A DNA stretch of 64,000 nt from Coprobacter sp. (GTDB lineage: Bacteria; Bacteroidota; Bacteroidia; Bacteroidales; UBA11471): the NCBI GenBank assembly GCA_017462265.1, contig JAFTRN010000050.1, positions 26,147-90,146 of the forward strand, given 5' to 3'. Below the pieces are notes generated by a model. That model was given only the letters and a program-made list of their open reading frames with translations. It ran no database searches and was not told the origin of the DNA. Positions within the stretch are counted from its first letter, which is position 1; every line of letters starts with the position of its first letter. The position numbers were made by a program, and so were the translations under genes. Of this stretch, positions 1-10,100 are shown in pieces.

Positions 1-957
1 ATCGAGCGTGAAATGCACCACGAAATAGTCGGCCTCGGTATCGGCATTGTCGGTATCGCTGTTGCGCACCAAGAAACGTCCGTTTTGCGTCTCGTCATAG
101 ACGTAATCGCTCCCCACCCGGGGATAATCGATACGTAACAAGGCATGATAATAAGGTGCGAAATAGCGCATACCCTCCACCCCTATCGTATTGTAGTGAC
201 GCGACACGATCTCGAAGCGTCGATATTCGTTCCCTGCCGGGAATATCAGCTCGGGCCGATGAGCATATTCCAATTCGTCTTGTCGCACATAGAGGGGCTG
301 CGCGACCACGTGCGACACCTCATCTACATTCTGCGATATATGCAGTTGCAACTCCTCGCGCGGATTGCGTATCTCGTAGCGCGGGTGCATCAGCTTCACG
401 GCAAGCTGCTGATGAGCCTTGTTGTAATCGATATCGGTGCGTGTGGTCACGTCGCAAGCGAGCGCCACCACATTCTCGGTAATCGAGAAACAGGCCGTGA
501 GCAACACCTCATCGGGCGCACCATCGGGATATACCTCCACGACATAATTGCCCGACACCAAGAAACGCATATCCTCGTTGGGCAATTCCAAGCGATAATT
601 CACATAGTGCCTATAGGTATTGAACGAAAGCGCGTAGTCATCGATCGACTGATTATTGAACCCATCGATATACTCCACCTCGGTGAGTGCCGAGGGCGTC
701 CAGTCGGCATTGCAATGCACCACCCGGTAATAGAGTTCATCGGGGTCCTCCGTGAATATATCAAACGAGATTACAATCCTGTCGTCTCCACCCAACAGCA
801 ATACCGGCGGTGCCAGCATATCCGATGCCGGACGCACCTGCAAAGTATGTATGCTGTCGGCCAACGCCTGTGTGCGATAGCCACTCCGTGCCGACACTGC
901 GCCTACACATACAAGAAGCAAAAATATGATGATACCACGTGCCTTCATAAATTTCAT
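1..957 (-). CDS. DUF5103 / type IX secretion plug-protein-like family; 5' part only, the C-terminus runs off the window start
   Basis: This gene is not reported as one ORF in the track because it is cut at base 1. Hand translation of the minus strand from ATG 957-955 gives MKFMKARGIIIFLLLVCVGAVSA (signal peptide), then ...IHTLQVRP...YYRVVHCNADWTPSALTEVEYIDGFNNQSIDDY...SGNYVVEVYPDG... It stays open for 319 codons down to base 1. The family was assigned from remembered DUF5103 motifs. Confidence 0.6.
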   Translation of the reverse strand, partial: MKFMKARGIIIFLLLVCVGAVSARSGYRTQALADSIHTLQVRPASDMLAPPVLLLGGDDRIVISFDIFTEDPDELYYRVVHCNADWTPSALTEVEYIDGFNNQSIDDYALSFNTYRHYVNYRLELPNEDMRFLVSGNYVVEVYPDGAPDEVLLTACFSITENVVALACDVTTRTDIDYNKAHQQLAVKLMHPRYEIRNPREELQLHISQNVDEVSHVVAQPLYVRQDELEYAHRPELIFPAGNEYRRFEIVSRHYNTIGVEGMRYFAPYYHALLRIDYPRVGSDYVYDETQNGRFLVRNSDTDNADTEADYFVVHFTLD

Positions 958-960
958 ACG

Positions 961-1314
961 TTACCATTCTATCGTCACGGCAGCCTCGCCCACCTCGCCT
1001 ACAATGGGAGGCGACAATTTTGCCACACGCAACGAACCGCCCGTCACGGCCGGATAGGCCTCGGCGATTGCCTTATATATGCGTCCCGCCACATGCTCGA
1101 GCAGGGCCGATGGCACCGCCATCTCGCGAGCCACCAACGCATAGAGGTGGGCATAGTTCAGCGTATCGGCCACATCGTCGCTCGCCATTGCTGCCTGCAA
1201 CGGCACATCTACCCGCAACGAAACCTCATAGTCGTTGCCCACCTTGCGCTCCTGCTGCATCACACCATGATAGGCATAGAAACGCACACGGTTCAACTCG
1301 ATGCTTGTTTTCAT
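961..1314 (-). CDS. folB: dihydroneopterin aldolase
   Basis: MKTSIELNRVRFYAYHGVMQQERKVGNDYEVSLRVDV...YAHLYALV fits the FolB signature. I moved the start to the ATG at 1314, which is M9 of the track ORF 961..1338. Confidence 0.8.
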   Translation of the reverse strand: MKTSIELNRVRFYAYHGVMQQERKVGNDYEVSLRVDVPLQAAMASDDVADTLNYAHLYALVAREMAVPSALLEHVAGRIYKAIAEAYPAVTGGSLRVAKLSPPIVGEVGEAAVTIEW

Positions 1315-1387
1315 ACAAAAAAACGGTTTTCTCCTCACAAAAATAAATCTTTTCGGCGAAAACTCCTGTTTTTTACGCCGAAAATAC

Positions 1388-1395
1388 TATTTTTG
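1388..1395 (+). promoter_or_regulatory. Bacteroidetes -7 promoter box TAnnTTTG (TATTTTTG) upstream of the bactofilin gene
   Basis: The motif tatttttg lies 27 nt before ATG 1422. Confidence 0.45.
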
Positions 1396-1421
1396 CACAA
1401 AACAATTCAACAATCGACACC

Positions 1422-1772
1422 ATGAGCAAGGACGCACAAAACGGAATGATTCATAATAATTTCTCGGCCAACACCACCATCGTGGGCAATATCAACGCCG
1501 GCGGCGACATTCGCATCGACGGCACATTGCAAGGAAACGTGGAGTGTGGCGGACGTGTAATCGTAGGCGAACAATCACACATACAAGGCAATATCGTTGC
1601 CGCCAACGCCGAGATCAACGGGAAAATACACGGCAATATCACCGTCAGCGACACCTTGGTGCTACGTGCCACCGCCGTAATCGAAGGCGACATCGCCACC
1701 GGCACACTCGTCATAGAGCCGCGCGCCCACTTCAACGGCACCTGCAAAATGCAAAACACCCCTGCAAAATAA
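1422..1772 (+). CDS. bactofilin (polymer-forming cytoskeletal protein, DUF583)
   Basis: 116 aa with a repetitive beta-helix pattern: TIVGNINAGGDIRIDGTLQGNVECGGRVIVGEQSHIQGNIVAANAEINGKIHGNITVSDTLVL... Confidence 0.8.
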   Translation: MSKDAQNGMIHNNFSANTTIVGNINAGGDIRIDGTLQGNVECGGRVIVGEQSHIQGNIVAANAEINGKIHGNITVSDTLVLRATAVIEGDIATGTLVIEPRAHFNGTCKMQNTPAK

Positions 1773-1847
1773 CCTCGGAAGTGTTTCGCCCCACAGTTCC
1801 CCGGCCACGCCGAACAAAACCGCTTAAAATTCCACCTATCCACTACC

Positions 1848-1874
1848 TCCCGCATCACCCCTGCGGGATTTTTT
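1848..1874 (+). terminator. rho-independent terminator after the bactofilin gene
   Basis: The stem tcccgca/tgcggga (1848-1854 and 1862-1868) has a 7-nt loop and is followed by tttttt. Confidence 0.7.
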
Positions 1875-1896
1875 ATTATCGTAAAACTTTTTCGCA

Positions 1897-1926
1897 CAAA
1901 ATGCAAACAAATTTGTTTGCATTTTG
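1897..1926. promoter_or_regulatory. 30-bp perfect palindrome, candidate operator of the HTH/AbiEii operon
   Basis: caaaatgcaaacaaa|tttgtttgcattttg is perfectly self-complementary. It directly abuts the TATATTTG box at 1927-1934. Confidence 0.6.
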
Positions 1927-1934
1927 TATATTTG
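1927..1934 (+). promoter_or_regulatory. -7 promoter box TATATTTG for the HTH/AbiEii operon
   Basis: The TAnnTTTG motif ends 9 nt before ATG 1944, which implies a very short or absent leader. Confidence 0.45.
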
Positions 1935-1943
1935 CATCGATAT

Positions 1944-2435
1944 ATGAACGAAAGAATCGAAATATTAAAAGGCATACACCCGGGCAAGGTTATTGGCCGA
2001 GATTTAAAGAAAAGGAATCTCAGCCAACGCACTTTTGCGACCACTATTGGTGAACATAGTCAGACACTGAACGCCGTCATCACCGGCCGACGGAGTATTA
2101 CGACCGAGATGGCTGTAAAAATAGAGCGCTCATTCGGATACACCGAGGGATTTCTACTCATTTTGCAAGCCTATTACGACATCGAGCAATACAAAAATCG
2201 ATTGAAATGTATGTCGGTCAATGGCACGCCTCGTGTGCGCAAAATTCTCTTTTGGGATACCGATTTCGACAAAATCGATTGGGGTAAGCACAAAAACATG
2301 GTCATTTCTCGCATTATAGAGCGAGGCACCGAGGCCGAAAAAGAAGAAATAGCCCGTTTCTACGGCCTAAGTATGACCGACCTATCCACCTACACTCCCA
2401 CAAATAGTTATCGAACAAAAAACACAAACAAATGA
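1944..2435 (+). CDS. HigA/XRE-family HTH protein with a C-terminal extension (DUF6922-like); putative antitoxin partner of AbiEii
   Basis: HPGKVIGRDLKKRNLSQRTFATTIGEHSQTLNAVITGRRSITTEMAVKIERSFGYTEGFLLILQAYYDIE matches the HigA antidote HTH pattern. The C-terminal part, ILFWDTDFDKIDWGKHKNMVISRIIERGTEAEKEEIARFYGL, is extra. The start is set at ATG 1944 because the track start 1917 is a TTG. The stop overlaps the next start (ATGA). Confidence 0.7.
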   Translation: MNERIEILKGIHPGKVIGRDLKKRNLSQRTFATTIGEHSQTLNAVITGRRSITTEMAVKIERSFGYTEGFLLILQAYYDIEQYKNRLKCMSVNGTPRVRKILFWDTDFDKIDWGKHKNMVISRIIERGTEAEKEEIARFYGLSMTDLSTYTPTNSYRTKNTNK

Positions 2436-3109
2436 GCCCGACCTCAGGATTATTACACTATAATACCATAACCCCGGTATTAAAACAGACTCTTTTGAAA
2501 CTTTCAGGAGAAGAATTATTTGCACCATTTCGATTGGTCGGTGGAACAAACCTCAGTTTAAGATTCGGACATAGGAAATCTATTGATATCGATTTATTCA
2601 GCGATGCCGAATATGGCAGTATCGATTATTCCATTATTGAAGAATATTTACAACGCCATTTTCCATACTATCTTTGCAACGATCGGTCAGGGATTGTAGG
2701 TTTCGGGCGAAGTTACTATATCGGATCATCTGCTGAGGATATTATTAAATTAGACTTAATGTACACCGACCCGTTTTTACTCCCAGCAGAAGTCATCGAT
2801 GGTATAAGTATGGCGAGTATTGCCGACATTATCGCTATGAAAATGAATGTTATATCTCGAGGTGGTCGAAAAAAAGATTTTTGGGATATACATATGCTAC
2901 TCGACTATTATCCCATATCCGAAATGATACAGTTGCACGCACAAAGATATGAGTGGGAACATCATGAAGCAGAATTGATTAAGAACCTATCCAACTTTGA
3001 GATTGCCAATGATGAACCCGACCCGATATGCCTCCAACAAAAAGATTGGGACGAAATAAAACTCGATTTTATAGATATTATATACAAATTAGAAAACGCC
3101 CCATGCTAA
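2432..3109 (+). CDS. nucleotidyltransferase, AbiEii/AbiGii toxin family (DUF1814)
   Basis: FRLVGGTNLSLRFGHRKSIDIDLFSD matches the AbiEii NTase motif (GGTxL...R.S.DIDF). The protein is 225 aa and is translationally coupled to the upstream HTH gene. Confidence 0.75.
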   Translation: MSPTSGLLHYNTITPVLKQTLLKLSGEELFAPFRLVGGTNLSLRFGHRKSIDIDLFSDAEYGSIDYSIIEEYLQRHFPYYLCNDRSGIVGFGRSYYIGSSAEDIIKLDLMYTDPFLLPAEVIDGISMASIADIIAMKMNVISRGGRKKDFWDIHMLLDYYPISEMIQLHAQRYEWEHHEAELIKNLSNFEIANDEPDPICLQQKDWDEIKLDFIDIIYKLENAPC

Positions 3110-3162
3110 AGCCCATAATATACGGTCCTATATCGCTGCGACCAGGTAGTATAAAAAACACG

Positions 3163-3202
3163 CCAACCGCCCCTAAAAATTAGAAGCGGTTGGTTTTCTT
3201 TT
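3163..3202. terminator. bidirectional terminator between the convergent AbiE-like and GmrSD-like operons
   Basis: The stem ccaaccgc (3163-3170) / gcggttgg (3186-3193) is flanked by an A-run upstream and ttttctttt downstream. Confidence 0.65.
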
Positions 3203-3223
3203 ATAAGCCACTATAATGGCATT

Positions 3224-3433
3224 TCAGAAGTCCAAAGCATCACGTTTTATCTCGGCAATGCGAGTTCTAACCTTTTCTTCTATCCCCATTAATGACTCCA
3301 TCAGCACCTCTTTGGGGATATGCCTATACACTCGACAGTTATCATATTTCTGCATTCTTCTACGATGCGCCTTCTCCGAATGAAATATCTGGTATAGTTC
3401 CATCAACGTAAACATCTCCATACCTATATCCAC
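3224..3433 (-). CDS. small hypothetical protein (69 aa), last gene of the GmrSD-like operon
   Basis: The ORF overlaps the upstream gene by 10 nt and shares the AT-rich codon style of the island. No motif was recognised. Confidence 0.4.
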   Translation of the reverse strand: MDIGMEMFTLMELYQIFHSEKAHRRRMQKYDNCRVYRHIPKEVLMESLMGIEEKVRTRIAEIKRDALDF

Positions 3434-3942
3434 CGCTGTTTCAACCGATAATAACCATTGCCTAGTCTCTCAAATCGGTCTCTCCCTTCACTTAAATTTC
3501 TACACACAGAAAGTTCTGGTGTTTTTGCACGAGTGTAATCTATATATTTTTTCCGTATAATTTCTTCTGTTATCTCCTTATAGTGCATAGGTTCATAATT
3601 ATTATCTTTGAAAACCTGCATTATTGCCTCATCACACGACATATTCTTTCTATGTTGAATATATCCTTTATTCGTATTCGGAAACGATGCCATAGTTTTA
3701 TTTCCAACCAATTTTACACTTAAACCATTCTCTGTAGAATATGTCACAAGAATATTAACTTCTGTTTGTACAGCCTGTAATATTGGTTCTAAGACTTCTT
3801 TCACTCGCGGAAGGACTTTTTTATTTATTTCCTCCTCTTCCTTTTCCCTTATCTGACTTTGAATTAATTGAATTGCGTCATTTGTCACACCCAATTCTTG
3901 CATTTGTTTTTTTAATGCATATAGTTCCTTTAATTTTTCCAT
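3424..3942 (-). CDS. coiled-coil protein with a C-terminal HARE-HTH winged-helix domain
   Basis: Residues ~101-168, MSCDEAIMQVFKDNNYEPMHYKEITEEIIRKKYIDYTRAKTPELSVCRNLSEGRDRFERLGNGYYRLK, match the HARE-HTH pattern (..LHYKEI...GKTPE.T....L.....RF.R.GRG.Y.L). The N-terminal part is rich in charged heptad-like sequence. Confidence 0.65.
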   Translation of the reverse strand: MEKLKELYALKKQMQELGVTNDAIQLIQSQIREKEEEEINKKVLPRVKEVLEPILQAVQTEVNILVTYSTENGLSVKLVGNKTMASFPNTNKGYIQHRKNMSCDEAIMQVFKDNNYEPMHYKEITEEIIRKKYIDYTRAKTPELSVCRNLSEGRDRFERLGNGYYRLKQRWI

Positions 3943-3971
3943 AATGTTTCTTTTCTATCTTGTTAAAAAAA

Positions 3972-6260
3972 TCATTTAACTACAAATTTTATTACATCTG
4001 GTTCTGAAGTCAGATATATGGAAACATATCTATCAAGAATTACCACATCTTTACCATCTTTCTTTTTACACAGATTTTCATATAATGAGTCAAATATTGC
4101 TCTCAAATGCTCCTTAATATAAGAATCTCTATACTGTATTTGTATTACGTCCACGCCTCTATTATCATGATTATACCTTGTCAAAATTGCATTATAGTCC
4201 GAACCATCAATTCTTATTTTTATTGGTTTCTTTTCATTAAGTTTCAACTTTCCACCACAAAACATATGTATATCTTCATGACATTTCTGTTCTAATGTTA
4301 TTGCCGTTGAAAGGAAACTCAAATCAACTTTTTTTATCTGTAATAAACGATCCCTATCTTTTTCGCTTATAGTTTTTCTACGTATTTCTTGCTTATCTTC
4401 TATTTGTTGTATACTTTGAGCCGATGGCTCTGCATCTCTTGACAATTTCTGTAATATAGATTTTTTTTGGTCTTCGGGCAAGCCCAATAACCACGAAACT
4501 AAATCTTCAGAACCTTCCGCAACGGAATCCAAAACATTATCTATCGGTGCTTTTTCTCGATAATCTGGATACAATCTTATTATTTCTTCTATCAAGCTAT
4601 CGGTCCTTGTATCAATATCTTTTATCGTCCAAAAATCTTTTTGTAAAATTTCTTTATTTATTCTTAAATGCTCAGTTTGAGATAATTGTTTTTTCTTATA
4701 TTCCCAATTTTTGTTTCCCATTTTACTATTATCTATTTTGGCGGCTAATGTAAGATTTCCCAACCGATGAATTTTCTCTTCATATTCTTCTTGAGAAACA
4801 GCCAATTTTTCCAACCACTCAACTGTTGATGTTTGGGGTATCAGATGTTCTATACTTAATGTAGATAAATTTACAGGCGCATTATTCCCCTCCAATTCCC
4901 ATTTGCAAAAGAAAGCCTTTACCGGGCTACGAAGTTCATACATATTCGCTGATTTTATATATTCACGAAGATCTCTATCTGTTGGCATTGCCCTTGGTGT
5001 ATTCCTATTCCCCTCTATCAAAATAGATTTAAATATTTCCACAATATTTGTATATTCACCCTGACACTTCGACAAAGTATATCTCAATAAGTCTGGGAAA
5101 TAATTGGATATAATACTCGTATCAATATTACAAAGAGACCTACGCATCAAATACGATACAAGAATCATCATAATTTCCGATAGTTGTTGAGAAGATATGT
5201 TTTTGCGTATGTCATACATCACGTATAACTCCAATAATAGAGCGACAGGCATCTCCGACTCTATTTCTCGGTATTCTCTTATTGCATTTCTCAACCCTTC
5301 ATCTACATTTTCTATCGGGGCATTATAAATTACATAATAACCATATGCATAATCCAAGATTTCTCGAAATAGTTCTTCTGTTCCAAATGGGTTCCCTATT
5401 TTTTCATAATACCATTTTGTAAACGAAGCATATACGGCATTTTTATTTACAATCGTTCTATTTTTAGCCATTATGAAAAATCTGAAAAAGGCCTCCATTT
5501 TTTTAGCATCGCGCGATACATAGAGTTCTATTTTTTTCCAATATTTTTCAAAATACTCATCTTGTTTGTCACTTGAGATAGGCATTAGCATGAAATTCCG
5601 AATAAGATCAGATGCTGTAAGTTTTGCCCCTGTAGCATTAATACTTTCAAATATTTTCTGTGGATAATCTTCTTCTCCTATTGGCACACAGACAATATAT
5701 AATCTATCTAATGTGTTCAATATATTATCAATAGTGAAATCACATAATAATTCCTCCAAGTATTTCTTTATTAAACAATAATTTTTCCACACATTCGAAT
5801 CTTGGTCGGGTATATTTCTAAAATCTCTGGTTACAATATGTTTATACACCTCATCATCAGAGACTAAAGGTTTTAATTTGAATTTGTTTGTTTCCGAATA
5901 AGAGTTTATCAAATATGTATTTTCAAGAGTCTTGGCCTTTTCATTTTCATTATCGCTATGCAAAATTTCTTTAATAGCATACAAAATGAGAAAAAGGGTA
6001 GTTAATCGTTGCTGGCCATCTATAACAGAACGCTCATTCTGAAAAGGTGTAAGAGATTTCTCCAAATAAATCATTATACCAATAAAATGCTTTGTGCGTT
6101 TCCCATATAATATATCTTTCAAATCCTCAAATAACTGATTTACTTCCCGTTTACTCCATGTGTAATTTCTTTGATAAACCGGAATAACATATTGTGTGCA
6201 TGAATTTCCTCGAAGCAATTCTAATAAACCCGTTTTTACAGGAACATAACTTTGTGCCAT
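3972..6260 (-). CDS. GmrSD-like DUF262/DUF1524 endonuclease (putative modification-dependent type IV restriction enzyme) with an extra C-terminal domain
   Basis: The N-terminus has YVIPVYQRNYTW and DGQQRLTTL (residues 81-89), which marks DUF262, a ParB-like NTPase. Residues ~468-520, LSIEHLIPQ...HRLGNLTLAAKIDNSKMGNKNW, mark DUF1524, a His-Me finger. About 190 further residues follow the canonical end. Confidence 0.8.
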   Translation of the reverse strand: MAQSYVPVKTGLLELLRGNSCTQYVIPVYQRNYTWSKREVNQLFEDLKDILYGKRTKHFIGIMIYLEKSLTPFQNERSVIDGQQRLTTLFLILYAIKEILHSDNENEKAKTLENTYLINSYSETNKFKLKPLVSDDEVYKHIVTRDFRNIPDQDSNVWKNYCLIKKYLEELLCDFTIDNILNTLDRLYIVCVPIGEEDYPQKIFESINATGAKLTASDLIRNFMLMPISSDKQDEYFEKYWKKIELYVSRDAKKMEAFFRFFIMAKNRTIVNKNAVYASFTKWYYEKIGNPFGTEELFREILDYAYGYYVIYNAPIENVDEGLRNAIREYREIESEMPVALLLELYVMYDIRKNISSQQLSEIMMILVSYLMRRSLCNIDTSIISNYFPDLLRYTLSKCQGEYTNIVEIFKSILIEGNRNTPRAMPTDRDLREYIKSANMYELRSPVKAFFCKWELEGNNAPVNLSTLSIEHLIPQTSTVEWLEKLAVSQEEYEEKIHRLGNLTLAAKIDNSKMGNKNWEYKKKQLSQTEHLRINKEILQKDFWTIKDIDTRTDSLIEEIIRLYPDYREKAPIDNVLDSVAEGSEDLVSWLLGLPEDQKKSILQKLSRDAEPSAQSIQQIEDKQEIRRKTISEKDRDRLLQIKKVDLSFLSTAITLEQKCHEDIHMFCGGKLKLNEKKPIKIRIDGSDYNAILTRYNHDNRGVDVIQIQYRDSYIKEHLRAIFDSLYENLCKKKDGKDVVILDRYVSIYLTSEPDVIKFVVK

Positions 6261-6286
6261 AAATAAATCTTTTTATTATCCTCTTG

Positions 6287-6294
6287 CAAAGTTA
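6287..6294 (-). promoter_or_regulatory. -7 promoter box (TAACTTTG on the minus strand) for the GmrSD-like operon
   Basis: The plus strand reads caaagtta. The box lies 27 nt upstream of the start at 6260. Confidence 0.45.
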
Positions 6295-6489
6295 CTAAAT
6301 AAAAACAACTTTAAAAGTATTTCGAAATAAATTTTCTTTAATATTCACAACAAAATAATCTTTGACGCATTAAATACCGTCGTTTGATTTTTTATATTAC
6401 ATAAATTACGCTTATTGCGTTGTATTTAAGTCAAATTTGCTATTTTTGTGTACACTATTTTGAAACCCGATTCTAAAAGCTTTTGAGAT

Positions 6490-7074
6490 ATGATAGAATA
6501 TATACGTGGGGAGGTGGCGGAGCTTACTCCTACATTGGCGGTAATAGATTGTAATGGTGTGGGATATGGACTGAACATATCTCTCACGACGTATAGCACA
6601 CTGGCCGTGGGGCGCGAGGCGCGGTTGTATGTGCACGAGGCCATACGCGAAGACGCTTACGTGCTATACGGATTTGCCGACCGTCGCGAGCGCGAGCTGT
6701 TTCTGCTACTCATTTCGGTATCGGGCGTGGGGCCCAACACGGCTCGCATGATATTGTCGTCGCTGTCGCCCGCCGAGCTGGAGCAGGTAATCGTCGGGGG
6801 CAACGTCGCCACGCTGAAATCGGTAAAGGGCATAGGGGCAAAAACGGCCGAACGTATAATTGTTGACCTCAAGGATAAAATAAAAGGGGGTACTTCTACG
6901 TTACTTATAAGCACCGCACCTCAACAACAGGAGGTACAAGACGAAGCCGTGGCGGCTCTCGTGATGCTGGGATTCCCCCAAGCGGCCTCGCAAAAGGTGG
7001 TGCAGAAACTACTAAAAGAGACCCCGACTCTCAAAGTCGAAGCCGTGATAAAGGCGGCTCTCAAGATGTTGTAA
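6490..7074 (+). CDS. ruvA: Holliday junction branch migration protein RuvA
   Basis: [35 protein letters not shown]...[13 protein letters not shown]...[19 protein letters not shown] is the typical RuvA sequence with HhH motifs. Confidence 0.9.
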
Positions 7075-7135
7075 CCGACATCTCGGCACGAGCGGGGCCA
7101 TATTACCGGATAGCCCCGTATAGGCTGCCACGACG

Positions 7136-10100
7136 ATGAGAAAGAGAACGTATCTGCTATATATACTTCTATTTTTCAGCGGGATAAGTTTCTATCCCGC
7201 TTTTGCTGTATCGTCGTCGCCCTACGCCGATATATCGATAAATCCCGAAGATACCATTACGCGCACGCCCGCGCGATACCCGGTGGCCAAAACCTCGGTA
7301 GAGGAGTACAACGACCTGAAAAATCGCCCTGTCGCCGACCTGAAAACGCCCGAAAACGTACGTACCGAAATCGAATACGATGCCAAGACCAATTGCTACG
7401 TAGTGCGCACCAAAGTGGGTGATTTCGACGTATCTACCCCCTTCATGCTCACCGCCGACGAGTACAAGGATTACTCCCTGCAACAATCGATGCAACAATA
7501 TTACCGCGAGAAAAATGCCGAGGCGTTTGCCAACGGAGGTAAAGAGTTCAATCTGCTCGATATGCAGTTCAACGTGGCCGCCCTCGACAAGGTATTCGGC
7601 CCGGGCGGTGTGAAGCTCAAAACCAGTGGTTCGATGAGCCTTAAATTGAGCCTCGTAACCAATAAAATCGATAATCCCGCACTCACCGAGAGCGCCCGCA
7701 AAAAGAGCTATTTCGATTTCGACGAGAAGATACAGGCCTCTATCGACGCATCGGTCGGCACGAAGATAGGCTTCAAGATGACCTACAACACCGACGCCAC
7801 ATTCGACTTCGACGCACAGAAAATGGCACTCAAATACGAAGGCGACGAGGACCAGATAATCAAGAATATAGAGGTGGGAAACATAAGCATGACCACCGGC
7901 TCGTCGCTCATACGGGGCGGTTCGTCGCTCTTCGGTATGAAGACGACGCTGCAATTTGGCAAACTTACCGTCACCGGACTTGTGTCGCAACAAGAGACCG
8001 ATTCTAAGACCGTGAGCAGCAAAGGCGGAGCACAGACCACCGAATTTGAAATCAGCGCCGACAGTTACGACCAGAACCGCCACTTCTTCCTCTCGCACTA
8101 TTTCCGCGACAATTACGACCAATTCATCGCCCGCCTGCCCTATATCACCTCGGGTGTCACCATCAATCGGGTGGAGATATGGGTTACCAATAAGCAAGGC
8201 CGATACGACAATGCCCGCAATATCGTGGCCTTTGCCGACCTGGGCGAGACCGAGGCCGGCAACCTGGCCAGCAACCACTGGAGCACCACCGGCGCGCAAT
8301 ACCCCTCTAACACCGCCAACACGCTCTACAACGAGATTATAACCACCTATGCCGACGCCCGATACATCAACCAGACCACCCAAGTGCTCGCGGCCCTCGA
8401 GGCCTACGATATAAACGGCGGCGAGGACTACGCCAAGATAGAGAGTGCACGTCTGCTGTCGTCGTCGGAATATACCCTCAACACGCAACTCGGCTACGTA
8501 TCGCTCAATACCCAACTATCGAGCGACGAGGTGCTCGCCATCGCCTTTGAATACACAAAAAACGGGCAGGTATATCAGGTGGGTGAGTTCTCTACCGACA
8601 TTACCGACACCGAGCAATGCCTCTTTGTGAAAATGCTGAAAGGCTCTACCGTCACCAACAAGAAGCCCATCTGGCACTTGATGATGAAAAACGTCTATTC
8701 ACTCGGCGCCTATCAGATACAGAAAGACAACTTCCGCCTCAATATCTACTATCAGAACGACACCGCCGGTACCAACACCGCCTATCTCCCGGCCGGCAAT
8801 ATCAGAGAAAAAACACTGCTCGAGGTGATGAATCTCGACCGTCTCGACAACAACCAAGAGACCAATCGCGACGGTGTGTTCGACTACGTATCGGGTTACA
8901 CGGTACTTCCCTCGTCGGGGCGCATCATATTTCCGGTAGTCGAGCCGTTCGGCTCTCACCTACGCAAGGCCATAGGTACCGCCGATGCCGACCGATATGC
9001 CTTCCAAGAGCTCTACGACTCCACCCTCACCATCGCCAAGCAATTTGCCGATAAGAACAAATTCATTATCAAAGGCGAATACAAGGCCTCGAACAGCGCC
9101 GAAATACAACTCAACGCCTACAACGTGCCCCGCGGGTCGGTAACCGTCACAGCCGGCGGTGTGACACTCACCGAGAATGTCGATTACACGGTCGATTACA
9201 ACATGGGCGTAGTCACCATACTCAACCAGAGCTATATCGACTCGGGCACCAGCATCAACGTATCGCTCGAGAGCCAAAGTATCAGCCAACAACGCAAGAC
9301 CTTGGTAGGGCTCGATCTGAACTATGCCTTCAGCAAGGATTTCAACTTCGGGCTCACGCTCATGCACATGAAGGAGAAAGCGCTCACCGAGAAAGTAAAC
9401 CTCGGCAGCGAAGTACTCAACAATACCTTGTGGGGTTTCAACACCTCATACAACACCGAGTTTCAATGGATCACCTCGTGGCTCAACAAGATACCCACCG
9501 TCACCGCCACCGCCCCATCGAGGCTGTCGATTTCGGCCGAGTTTGCCCAACTCATACCCAACGAGAAGAAAAACGAAGACACCAACTCATATCTCGACGA
9601 CTTCGAAGGCTCGCAAACGACCATCGACATACGCACACCCTATTCGTGGACGCTCTCGGCCACACCATCGCTTTTCCTCGAATCGACACTCGCCGACAAT
9701 ATCGACTATGGCAAAAACCGGGCTTTGCTGGCTTGGTACTATATCGATCGCATCTTCACGCAACGCAACTCGTCGGCCACCCCGGCACATATCAAGAACG
9801 ACCTCGAACAGCTCTCGAACCACTATGTGCGTGAAGTGGAATACACCGAGGTATTCCCCAACAAGGAGCTCAATTACGGCGAATCCTCGGTCATGCAGGT
9901 GCTCAACCTCTCCTACTATCCCGAGGAGCGAGGCCCCTACAACCTCGATGCCGACAACGTAGATAGCGATGGCAAATTACTGAATCCCGAGAAGCGTTGG
10001 GGCGGTATCATGCGCAAAATGGACGTCACCGACTTCGATAACTCCAACATCGAGTACCTGCAATTCTGGCTTATGGATCCTTTCTTATATAATGAAGACG

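Follow-up and report, generated by a model that had tools for sequence, protein, structure and literature searches.

A GmrSD-family nuclease gene with a predicted B3-like tail and a small HARE-HTH gene behind it: a possible exchangeable DNA-reader accessory in a Coprobacter defence islet

When a type IV restriction gene is followed at close range by a small gene for a stand-alone DNA-binding domain, and then by a smaller open reading frame (ORF), do the three form a dedicated multi-component system, or does the locus reflect a looser arrangement in which a nuclease acquires an interchangeable partner? This question is raised by a locus of Coprobacter sp. (assembly GCA_017462265.1, contig JAFTRN010000050.1, positions 26,147-90,146 of the forward strand; this 64,000-nt stretch is hereafter the window), in which a gene for a 762-amino-acid (aa) enzyme of the GmrSD family, a gene for a 172-aa HARE-HTH protein and a 69-aa ORF lie in series on the minus strand (Table 1). 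A first-pass annotation, made from the nucleotide sequence, had suggested a composite three-gene restriction system; its observation is confirmed and its interpretation is partly supported. We tentatively favour, with somewhat less than even confidence, a two-gene module, i.e., a GmrSD nuclease together with an exchangeable DNA-reader accessory encoded in trans, rather than a conserved three-gene system. What is new here is a GmrSD enzyme with a predicted B3-like tail next to a member of a new accessory family, the GmrSD enzyme itself being of a known kind.

Judged by its translation, the 762-aa protein is an intact, bona fide GmrSD-family enzyme, because its diagnostic motifs are intact and the proteins of solved structure closest to it are SspE and DUF262/DUF1524 proteins. 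Alongside both Pfam domains, it displays the defining motifs of the family as taken from earlier work (PMC11411939, PMC4619093): the QR motif (YQRNYTW), DGQQR at residues 81-85, FxxxN (FESIN) and the H...N...H/N series of the His-Me finger nuclease, with IEHLIPQ at residue 470 (H472), HRLGNLTL at residue 498 (N502) and a downstream N. The PADLOC models Orf5 (E 4e-104), HEC-06, SspE and mREase_IV all match the protein, and its GmrSD_C domain aligns with a solved DUF262/DUF1524 protein; the first-pass identification of a GmrSD-like enzyme thus holds. In such enzymes, the DUF262 domain senses modification and uses nucleoside triphosphate to license the His-Me nuclease (PMC11411939, PMC4619093, PMC8565348), and by family precedent the Coprobacter enzyme may cleave DNA with modified bases.

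Beyond the core, the protein extends for a further ~200 residues that had gone unmentioned in the first-pass annotation, comprising a linker (residues ~565-637), for which no homologue was found in the fetched loci, and a C-terminal domain of ~125 residues, herein domain X. The AlphaFold2 (AF2) model of domain X has a predicted local distance difference test score (pLDDT) of 87.9, and its top four Foldseek matches in the PDB are plant B3-DNA complexes of LEC2, VAL1 and FUS3, each with probability 1.0 (template-modelling [TM] score 0.54 by query and 0.64-0.66 by target; E 1.2e-3 to 4e-3); the next match after this group has a probability of 0.15. At the level of the fold only, the model suggests a B3-like DNA-binding pseudobarrel; by sequence, domain X stands outside the Pfam B3 family, with no match at E up to 1.

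It is in this tail that the enzyme and its closest relatives, which share 55-61% identity with it over residues 1-570, differ. Relatives of ~700 aa consist of the core and DUF4357; those of 853-867 aa with this type of tail carry the core, DUF4357 and the same B3-like domain; and three others (P0012, P0016 and P0106) combine the core and DUF4357 with an unannotated domain that we name YPDG. A DUF4357 segment is present in every close relative, and the 762-aa enzyme alone lacks it, with a short unique linker in its place. The C-terminus of this GmrSD clade is a swap-site for the DNA-binding modules DUF4357, B3-like and YPDG. Another candidate was rejected, namely that ~835-870-aa relatives would carry a fused HARE-HTH domain and that the Coprobacter locus would be the split form of such a gene; the tails of these relatives are DUF4357 with the B3-like or YPDG domain. 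Separately, a 699-aa GmrSD+DUF4357 relative (P0114 region of L077-L080, 4001-6100) lies between a gene for a tetratricopeptide-repeat (TPR) protein and one for an HSP70+TPR protein, with a UvrD-like helicase after the latter and, in some contigs, an IS66 insertion upstream, i.e., another defence-island context for the same GmrSD clade.

The second gene, whose product is named by NCBI as a winged helix-turn-helix protein of Coprobacter sp., encodes two independent domains joined by a disordered linker (residues 83-96) in an AF2 model of pLDDT 88.3. Its C-terminal half belongs to the HARE-HTH family, scoring 38.9 bits against a Pfam cut-off of 25.9; together with the 29-nt gap behind the nuclease gene and the lack of a minus-strand promoter box between the two, this bears out the earlier description of a tightly linked yet separate HARE-HTH gene. 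The modelled fold of this half matches the N-domain of the RNA polymerase delta subunit (8x6g_E, 2krc) and forkhead domains with probabilities of 0.9-1.0, the delta N-domain being the founding HARE-HTH. The same half is closest to HARE-HTH repeats fused to Mrr_cat, GIY-YIG and PD-(D/E)XK nucleases, and HARE-HTH domains have been proposed as discriminators of modified DNA (PMC10853773, PMC11037411). As for the N-terminal half, it had been taken for a plain coiled coil; the AF2 model instead gives a helical hairpin (residues 2-17 and 21-55) followed by a beta-hairpin (61-82). We refer to this N-terminal module as NTM. No other protein with an NTM-HARE-HTH architecture was found by exhaustive phmmer among 1.84 billion representatives, and a word-index search with the 172-aa protein returned only the protein itself.

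Table 1. Coordinates of the genes, domains and signals of the locus (window positions; residues refer to the encoded protein).
Feature	Position	Strand	Details and basis
Putative Bacteroidetes-type -7 promoter box, TAACTTTG	6287-6294	-	26 nt upstream of GmrSD ATG
GmrSD-family type IV restriction enzyme gene, 762 aa	3972-6260	-	Pfam, PADLOC, solved relatives
DUF262/GmrSD_N (ParB-like NTPase) domain	5589-6203	-	Residues 20-224; Pfam E 1.2e-33
DUF1524/GmrSD_C His-Me finger nuclease domain	4587-4985	-	Residues 426-558; Pfam E 8.9e-20
Linker	4350-4568	-	Residues ~565-637; in place of relatives' DUF4357-containing segment
Domain X, predicted B3-like pseudobarrel	3975-4349	-	Residues ~638-762; AF2 and Foldseek
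Accessory gene, 172 aa, NTM + HARE-HTH	3424-3942	-	Pfam, AF2, phmmer
NTM module	3697-3942	-	Residues 1-82; two helices and beta-hairpin (AF2)
HARE-HTH winged helix	3439-3642	-	Residues 101-168; PF05066
Small ORF, 69 aa	3224-3433	-	GTG start at 3433; ORF list
Terminator-like hairpin and T-run	3153-3193	-	14-pair stem and T-run at 3193-3163; 30 nt past small ORF

By sequence comparison, NTM founds a previously unannotated Bacteroidales family, with a consensus of ~85 residues (M.KL.ELYEA...L.E.G...EEEII..EILP..KE..EP.L....R.LVL.V.Y.PEEG) to which the 172-aa protein conforms and in which E35, P45 and P53 are invariant. The protein matches an NTM hidden Markov model (HMM) at E 5.8e-30, a value that is partly circular given that the 14-member HMM includes the window protein; independent support comes from single-sequence phmmer, with more than a dozen N-half matches, each at E 5e-6 to 8e-4. 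Its relatives are proteins of ~200-230 aa with NTM at the N-terminus, followed usually by YPDG and rarely by a B3-like domain (P0150), a HARE-HTH domain occurring in this position only in the 172-aa protein. The loci fetched for these proteins, 39 from genomes and 14 from metagenomes, are from Bacteroidales wherever the source is named and cover up to 8 kb on each side, some contigs being short; look-ups for P0127, P0150 and P0132 gave contigs too short for informative context; the genome scan used a 5-sequence alignment, and a word-index search with the NTM profile yielded mostly fragments. Neither NTM nor YPDG nor the B3-like tail is represented by a model in Pfam, NCBIfam, PADLOC or PHROGs (YPDG being covered by the PHROGs scan only within P0129), and none of the three has a sequence relative in the PDB. 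An NTM family that is abundant in gut and rumen Bacteroidales has thus had a model in none of the four profile libraries searched.

Further modules occur in these proteins. In P0143, P0148, P0140 and P0131, an unannotated domain of ~140 residues (motifs YHIYGEGKDKRFDQ ... DEVKC ... FKL), with no sequence match in Pfam or the PDB, precedes NTM, with or without YPDG; an SRA-like identity for this domain in P0143 and P0148 was considered and dropped, as sequence support from PDB and Pfam is absent. In the NTM protein of L060 (1435-2064), the second half of YPDG is swapped for an end resembling a winged HTH, another sign of C-terminal module swapping. Finally, the YPDG alignment A6 (e.g., L010 8001-8687 and the tails of P0012, P0016 and P0106) contains a conserved GNGW.L.THSST..KK..IE.I that aligns with PGTPYWVITNTNTGRKCSMIEHIMQSMQF of the SeqA C-terminal part, a weak match (hmmsearch E 0.56; hhalign P 0.0011, probability 20%). 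SeqA binds hemimethylated GATC DNA, and a role for YPDG as a methylation-state reader on the strength of this likeness is a weak lead rather than a result.

Within their clusters, NTM genes hold a consistent position. The gene is typically the last of a co-directional series: among 50 loci (36 from genomes and 14 from metagenomes), 43 have an upstream neighbour of the same orientation, at a gap of 11 nt or less in 27 of those 43, and most NTM genes come after a pair encoding an HKD-SNF2 helicase and an Eco57I-like methylase or after other defence genes. Across Bacteroidales, many defence operons unrelated to one another have a member of the accessory family at their 3' end; the accessory is therefore a generic plug-in and not a GmrSD-specific subunit. 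A more general proposition would be that NTM proteins constitute a new class of exchangeable, trans-acting readers of DNA or its modifications, in which NTM would attach, by docking or by oligomerisation, to restriction machines engaged on DNA and the C-terminal reader (HARE-HTH, B3-like or YPDG with its possible SeqA-like motif) would set or widen the range of DNA that the upstream effector (GmrSD, HKD-SNF2 helicase/methylase, TIR or AbiG) attacks or spares, together providing a "specificity cassette" layer shared by unrelated defence systems of Bacteroidales; we consider this generalisation unlikely, though far from negligible.

One recurrent Bacteroidales operon stands out among these contexts (L010-L048 and L051-L064; examples at L012 122-8642, L042 1212-8648 and L053 280-8642). 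It encodes an HKD/PLD-SNF2 helicase of ~1080 aa and an Eco57I-like methyltransferase (MTase) of ~1140 aa with TaqI_C, and continues with a variable inserted gene and then an NTM-YPDG small protein in last place; the whole resembles Hma or BREX-related systems of restriction-modification type with "embedded" genes.

The same breadth of association would also suit a protein with no part in restriction, i.e., a DNA-binding regulator, or a nucleoid-associated, silencer-like protein, for the AT-rich islet or for defence operons, since a generic regulator could likewise accompany operons of many unrelated kinds. The order of a helical module at the N-terminus, then a flexible linker and finally a winged helix is consistent with such a role, as is the setting of a 30% GC islet in a 52% GC genome; Rok-type proteins are the best matches in a viral library and the PDB matches include the Rok DNA-binding domain, none of them significant. 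In defence operons, however, the gene for a regulator usually comes first or is divergent, whereas the 172-aa gene is last and looks translationally coupled; the other C-domains of the family are fused to nuclease C-termini, which is unusual for regulators; and the structural matches reach a TM score of only ~0.3 at E > 0.007. We regard a purely regulatory function as distinctly improbable. On the structural side, winged-helix proteins of Rok type from Bacillus phages give the 172-aa model its best alignments over the full length in the viral library (E 0.012, TM 0.3, non-significant), and the layout of the protein is the same as that of xenogeneic silencers.

Is the association of NTM with GmrSD then more than a coincidence of neighbourhood? 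An NTM gene lies downstream of GmrSD in two of the seven close lineages with readable context, the contig of a further relative (P0003) ending too early to show the downstream gene. Besides the locus in the window, the pairing is seen in P0014, an 853-aa enzyme with a B3-like tail and a core of 58% identity, where a 236-aa NTM-YPDG gene (NTM E 1e-34) of the same orientation follows at a distance of 86 nt in each of the 4 contig variants shown. In addition, the B3-like domain is common to the 853-867-aa GmrSD relatives and the NTM protein P0150, with blastp matches between P0150 and the GmrSD tails at E 1e-17 to 5e-30, and the YPDG of NTM proteins matches the tails of P0012, P0016 and P0106 at E 1e-6 to 5e-12. 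Both domains are thus fused to NTM on the one hand and to this GmrSD clade on the other, which in sequence terms constitutes a classical Rosetta-stone pattern. The NTM-GmrSD association is, on these comparisons, not random, because two GmrSD lineages both show it, each with another C-domain, and because its domains are shared with GmrSD tails. An earlier thought of ours, that a downstream NTM gene complements the 700-aa relatives without an extra tail, was dropped, such a gene being absent there.

Several points weigh against the two-gene module. Conservation of the downstream genes with the nuclease, which the first-pass annotation had set beforehand as its test, largely fails: no GmrSD core was found at any of the 52 other NTM loci in the stretch fetched, which spans up to 8 kb on each side and less for some contigs, and the NTM gene is absent at 5 of the 7 close GmrSD lineages with readable context (P0009, P0045, P0012, P0030 and P0114), where the enzyme evidently works without such a partner, as in most genomes. 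Unrelated effectors upstream of NTM genes speak against a specific protein-protein interface, and this promiscuity weakens the model of a specific subunit and keeps both the regulator and the independent-cassette explanations alive. The NTM-HARE-HTH combination is unique, hence it affords no co-evolution comparison. The B3 assignment of domain X comes from a structural model with borderline Foldseek E-values (1e-3) and no Pfam B3 match. Lastly, co-transcription of the two genes is inferred from just the 29-nt gap and the lack of a promoter motif.

These same data would allow the two neighbours to be functionally independent, with the NTM-HARE-HTH gene a separate mini-cassette (a stand-alone defence or anti-defence factor, or a hitch-hiker) placed where it is by the shuffling of defence islands. 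That most GmrSD relatives have no NTM gene, and that its unique set of domains has the look of a recent shuffling, fit such a history; the great regularity with which NTM genes take the 3' end of operons, at gaps of 11 nt or less, the recurrence of an NTM gene behind two different GmrSD genes, the sharing of domains with GmrSD tails and the lack, in the 172-aa protein, of a catalytic domain able to act alone do not. Functional independence appears to us to be an improbable outcome, albeit one of real weight.

In the two-gene module, a plausible division of labour would be as follows. The first gene supplies a ParB-like NTPase/sensor, a His-Me nuclease and a predicted B3-like DNA-binding domain of its own. 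Co-expressed with this enzyme, the 172-aa protein would bring a HARE-HTH domain to the same DNA, with NTM mediating self-association (oligomerisation) or docking on the enzyme and the disordered linker tethering NTM to a HARE-HTH domain of the kind associated with restriction nucleases. The accessory would thereby add a DNA- or modification-reading surface in trans, a slot that in sister enzymes would be filled in cis by YPDG or B3-like tails. The identities of genes and domains, their folds, the distribution of the family and the sharing of domains are shown by the comparisons above; co-transcription, physical or functional coupling of the two proteins, reader function and specificity for modified DNA are predictions of the model.

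The layout of the locus would be compatible with a joint transcription of the nuclease and HARE-HTH genes. The three ORFs, their spacing and motifs, the TAACTTTG box and the terminator all lie where they had been reported in the first pass. The 172-aa gene begins 29 nt past the 762-aa gene and overlaps the 69-aa ORF by 10 nt; an in-frame ATG at 3421 would give a 65-aa version of the latter, free of overlap and starting 2 nt past the stop of the HARE-HTH gene. The TAACTTTG box, which may act as the promoter, is the only minus-strand TAnnTTTG within 3224-6400, in a window where this motif is enriched (66 found vs 36.4 +/- 5.9 expected), and on that strand no promoter box lies between the 762-aa and 172-aa genes, which are probably co-transcribed. 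The terminator-like hairpin closes the operon and sits between it and a convergent AbiEii gene.

Does the small ORF belong to this unit? A conserved three-component GmrSD system, with the nuclease, a dedicated HARE-HTH specificity subunit and the 69-aa product as an inhibitor or immunity peptide, would draw on the tight spacing (29 nt, then a 10-nt overlap or a 2-nt gap), on the single promoter box and single terminator, and on the calling of the 65-aa form by NCBI PGAP (MBQ8423985.1, hypothetical protein, Coprobacter sp.). The exact trio of nuclease, HARE-HTH gene and small ORF is, however, confined to one Coprobacter lineage, so the neighbourhood as such is not conserved. Among 15 billion proteins, the 65-aa form clusters with nothing but itself and the 69-aa form is absent; no family match was found in the four libraries, nor any similarity, by protein or DNA, in the ~70 related loci fetched. 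The ORF is skipped by other gene callers, being uncalled in the ENA/Logan gene sets. Its GC content at third codon positions (GC3) is 0.50 vs 0.26-0.27 in the two upstream genes, which suggests a different origin or non-coding DNA, and its codon score of 0.04 is the best of six frames, yet under every in-frame window of four real island genes (0.08-0.27). Behind the NTM gene of the P0014 lineage, the next gene called lies on the opposite strand. The 2-nt spacing is left as the sole positive sign for the small ORF, which is probably a non-functional orphan of atypical composition in a region that may be a 3' untranslated region (UTR). On present evidence it is outside the mechanism, no evidence favours the proposed inhibitor or immunity peptide, and we consider a three-component system very improbable. 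Of the suggested multi-component variant, there remains the two-gene core, which gains from a second lineage, P0014, with a homologous small gene directly downstream.

The locus is part of a defence islet of ~4.5 kb, low in GC and acquired horizontally by a gut Coprobacter sp., which also holds an AbiE-type pair. By composition, the low-GC stretch runs from ~1900 to ~6450 of the window (GC 0.29-0.40 vs ~0.52 in the flanks); it is bordered at one end by folB and a 116-aa gene without a Pfam match, and at the other by ruvA/sprA. Public contigs with identical proteins all show the same layout and represent one Coprobacter lineage. Pfam places an AbiEi-like/AbiEii pair at 1917-3109 on the plus strand, convergent with the GmrSD operon. 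A perfect 32-bp palindrome at 1896-1927, with the halves ACAAAATGCAAACAAA and TTTGTTTGCATTTTGT, overlaps the start of the first gene of this pair (HTH_3+DUF6922), which shares 4 nt with the AbiEii nucleotidyltransferase gene; the two probably form an AbiE-type toxin-antitoxin pair, of which the palindrome would be the operator. Repeat searches revealed no direct or inverted repeats flanking the islet, no integrase or tRNA was seen at the islet in the part examined, and an Rfam scan of window positions 1-8000 gave no credible match.

Ultimately, GmrSD enzymes are common type IV restriction systems whose target choice is poorly understood, and what makes this locus of value is chiefly the NTM family together with the tail-swap pattern: the tail modules of these enzymes also occur in small stand-alone proteins that have an N-terminal domain in common and are encoded last in many defence operons of gut Bacteroidales. 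Should such small proteins act in trans, they would represent a portable specificity layer for restriction systems and a tractable test of HARE-HTH reading; should they not, the locus would be an ordinary GmrSD gene with an unrelated neighbour.

Set against known systems, the 762-aa protein resembles Eco94GmrSD, BrxU and SspE (PF03235+PF07510) in its core of DUF262, helical linker and DUF1524 and in its motifs, and it shares with the GmrSD family a location in a defence island (PMC4619093). The extra domains listed for that family are DUF4268, DUF4357 and DNA_binding_1 (PMC4619093), and the B3-like tail is not among them; compared with its nearest relatives, the enzyme lacks DUF4357 and is followed by a small HARE-HTH protein. 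The first-pass annotation had noted that GmrSD enzymes are normally described as single polypeptides, yet the two-gene GmrS+GmrD of E. coli CT596 (PMC4619093) and TgvAB of Vibrio cholerae (PMC11411939) are precedents for GmrSD restriction that needs more than one polypeptide. In both, the partner is itself a DUF262 or DUF1524 protein, whereas the 172-aa and 69-aa proteins contain neither domain. Nuclease-fused HARE-HTH domains (Mrr_cat, GIY-YIG, PD-(D/E)XK) are the most similar to that of the 172-aa protein, which unlike them is joined to a new N-terminal module and encoded beside the nuclease. Domain X has, by Foldseek, the fold of the B3-like DNA-binding pseudobarrels, which include plant B3 and the effector or recognition domains of EcoRII and BfiI, and it is appended to a nuclease as a predicted DNA-binding module; EcoRII and BfiI chains are absent from the 50 listed Foldseek matches.

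A close parallel to the accessory is DUF3780, a small stand-alone protein in the HKD-SNF2 helicase and N6-MTase operons of Type-2 BREX-related ("BR") systems; fusions of DUF3780 to reader modules (ASCH/PUA, RAMA) also occur, and a role in reading modifications has been proposed for it (PMC12839542). DUF3780 and NTM have no sequence match in Pfam scans and differ in fold, a four-stranded sheet with five helices being described for DUF3780 vs two helices and a hairpin for NTM. The logic of the two families is nonetheless the same, and the idea of a reader acting in trans is comparable in both (PMC12839542).

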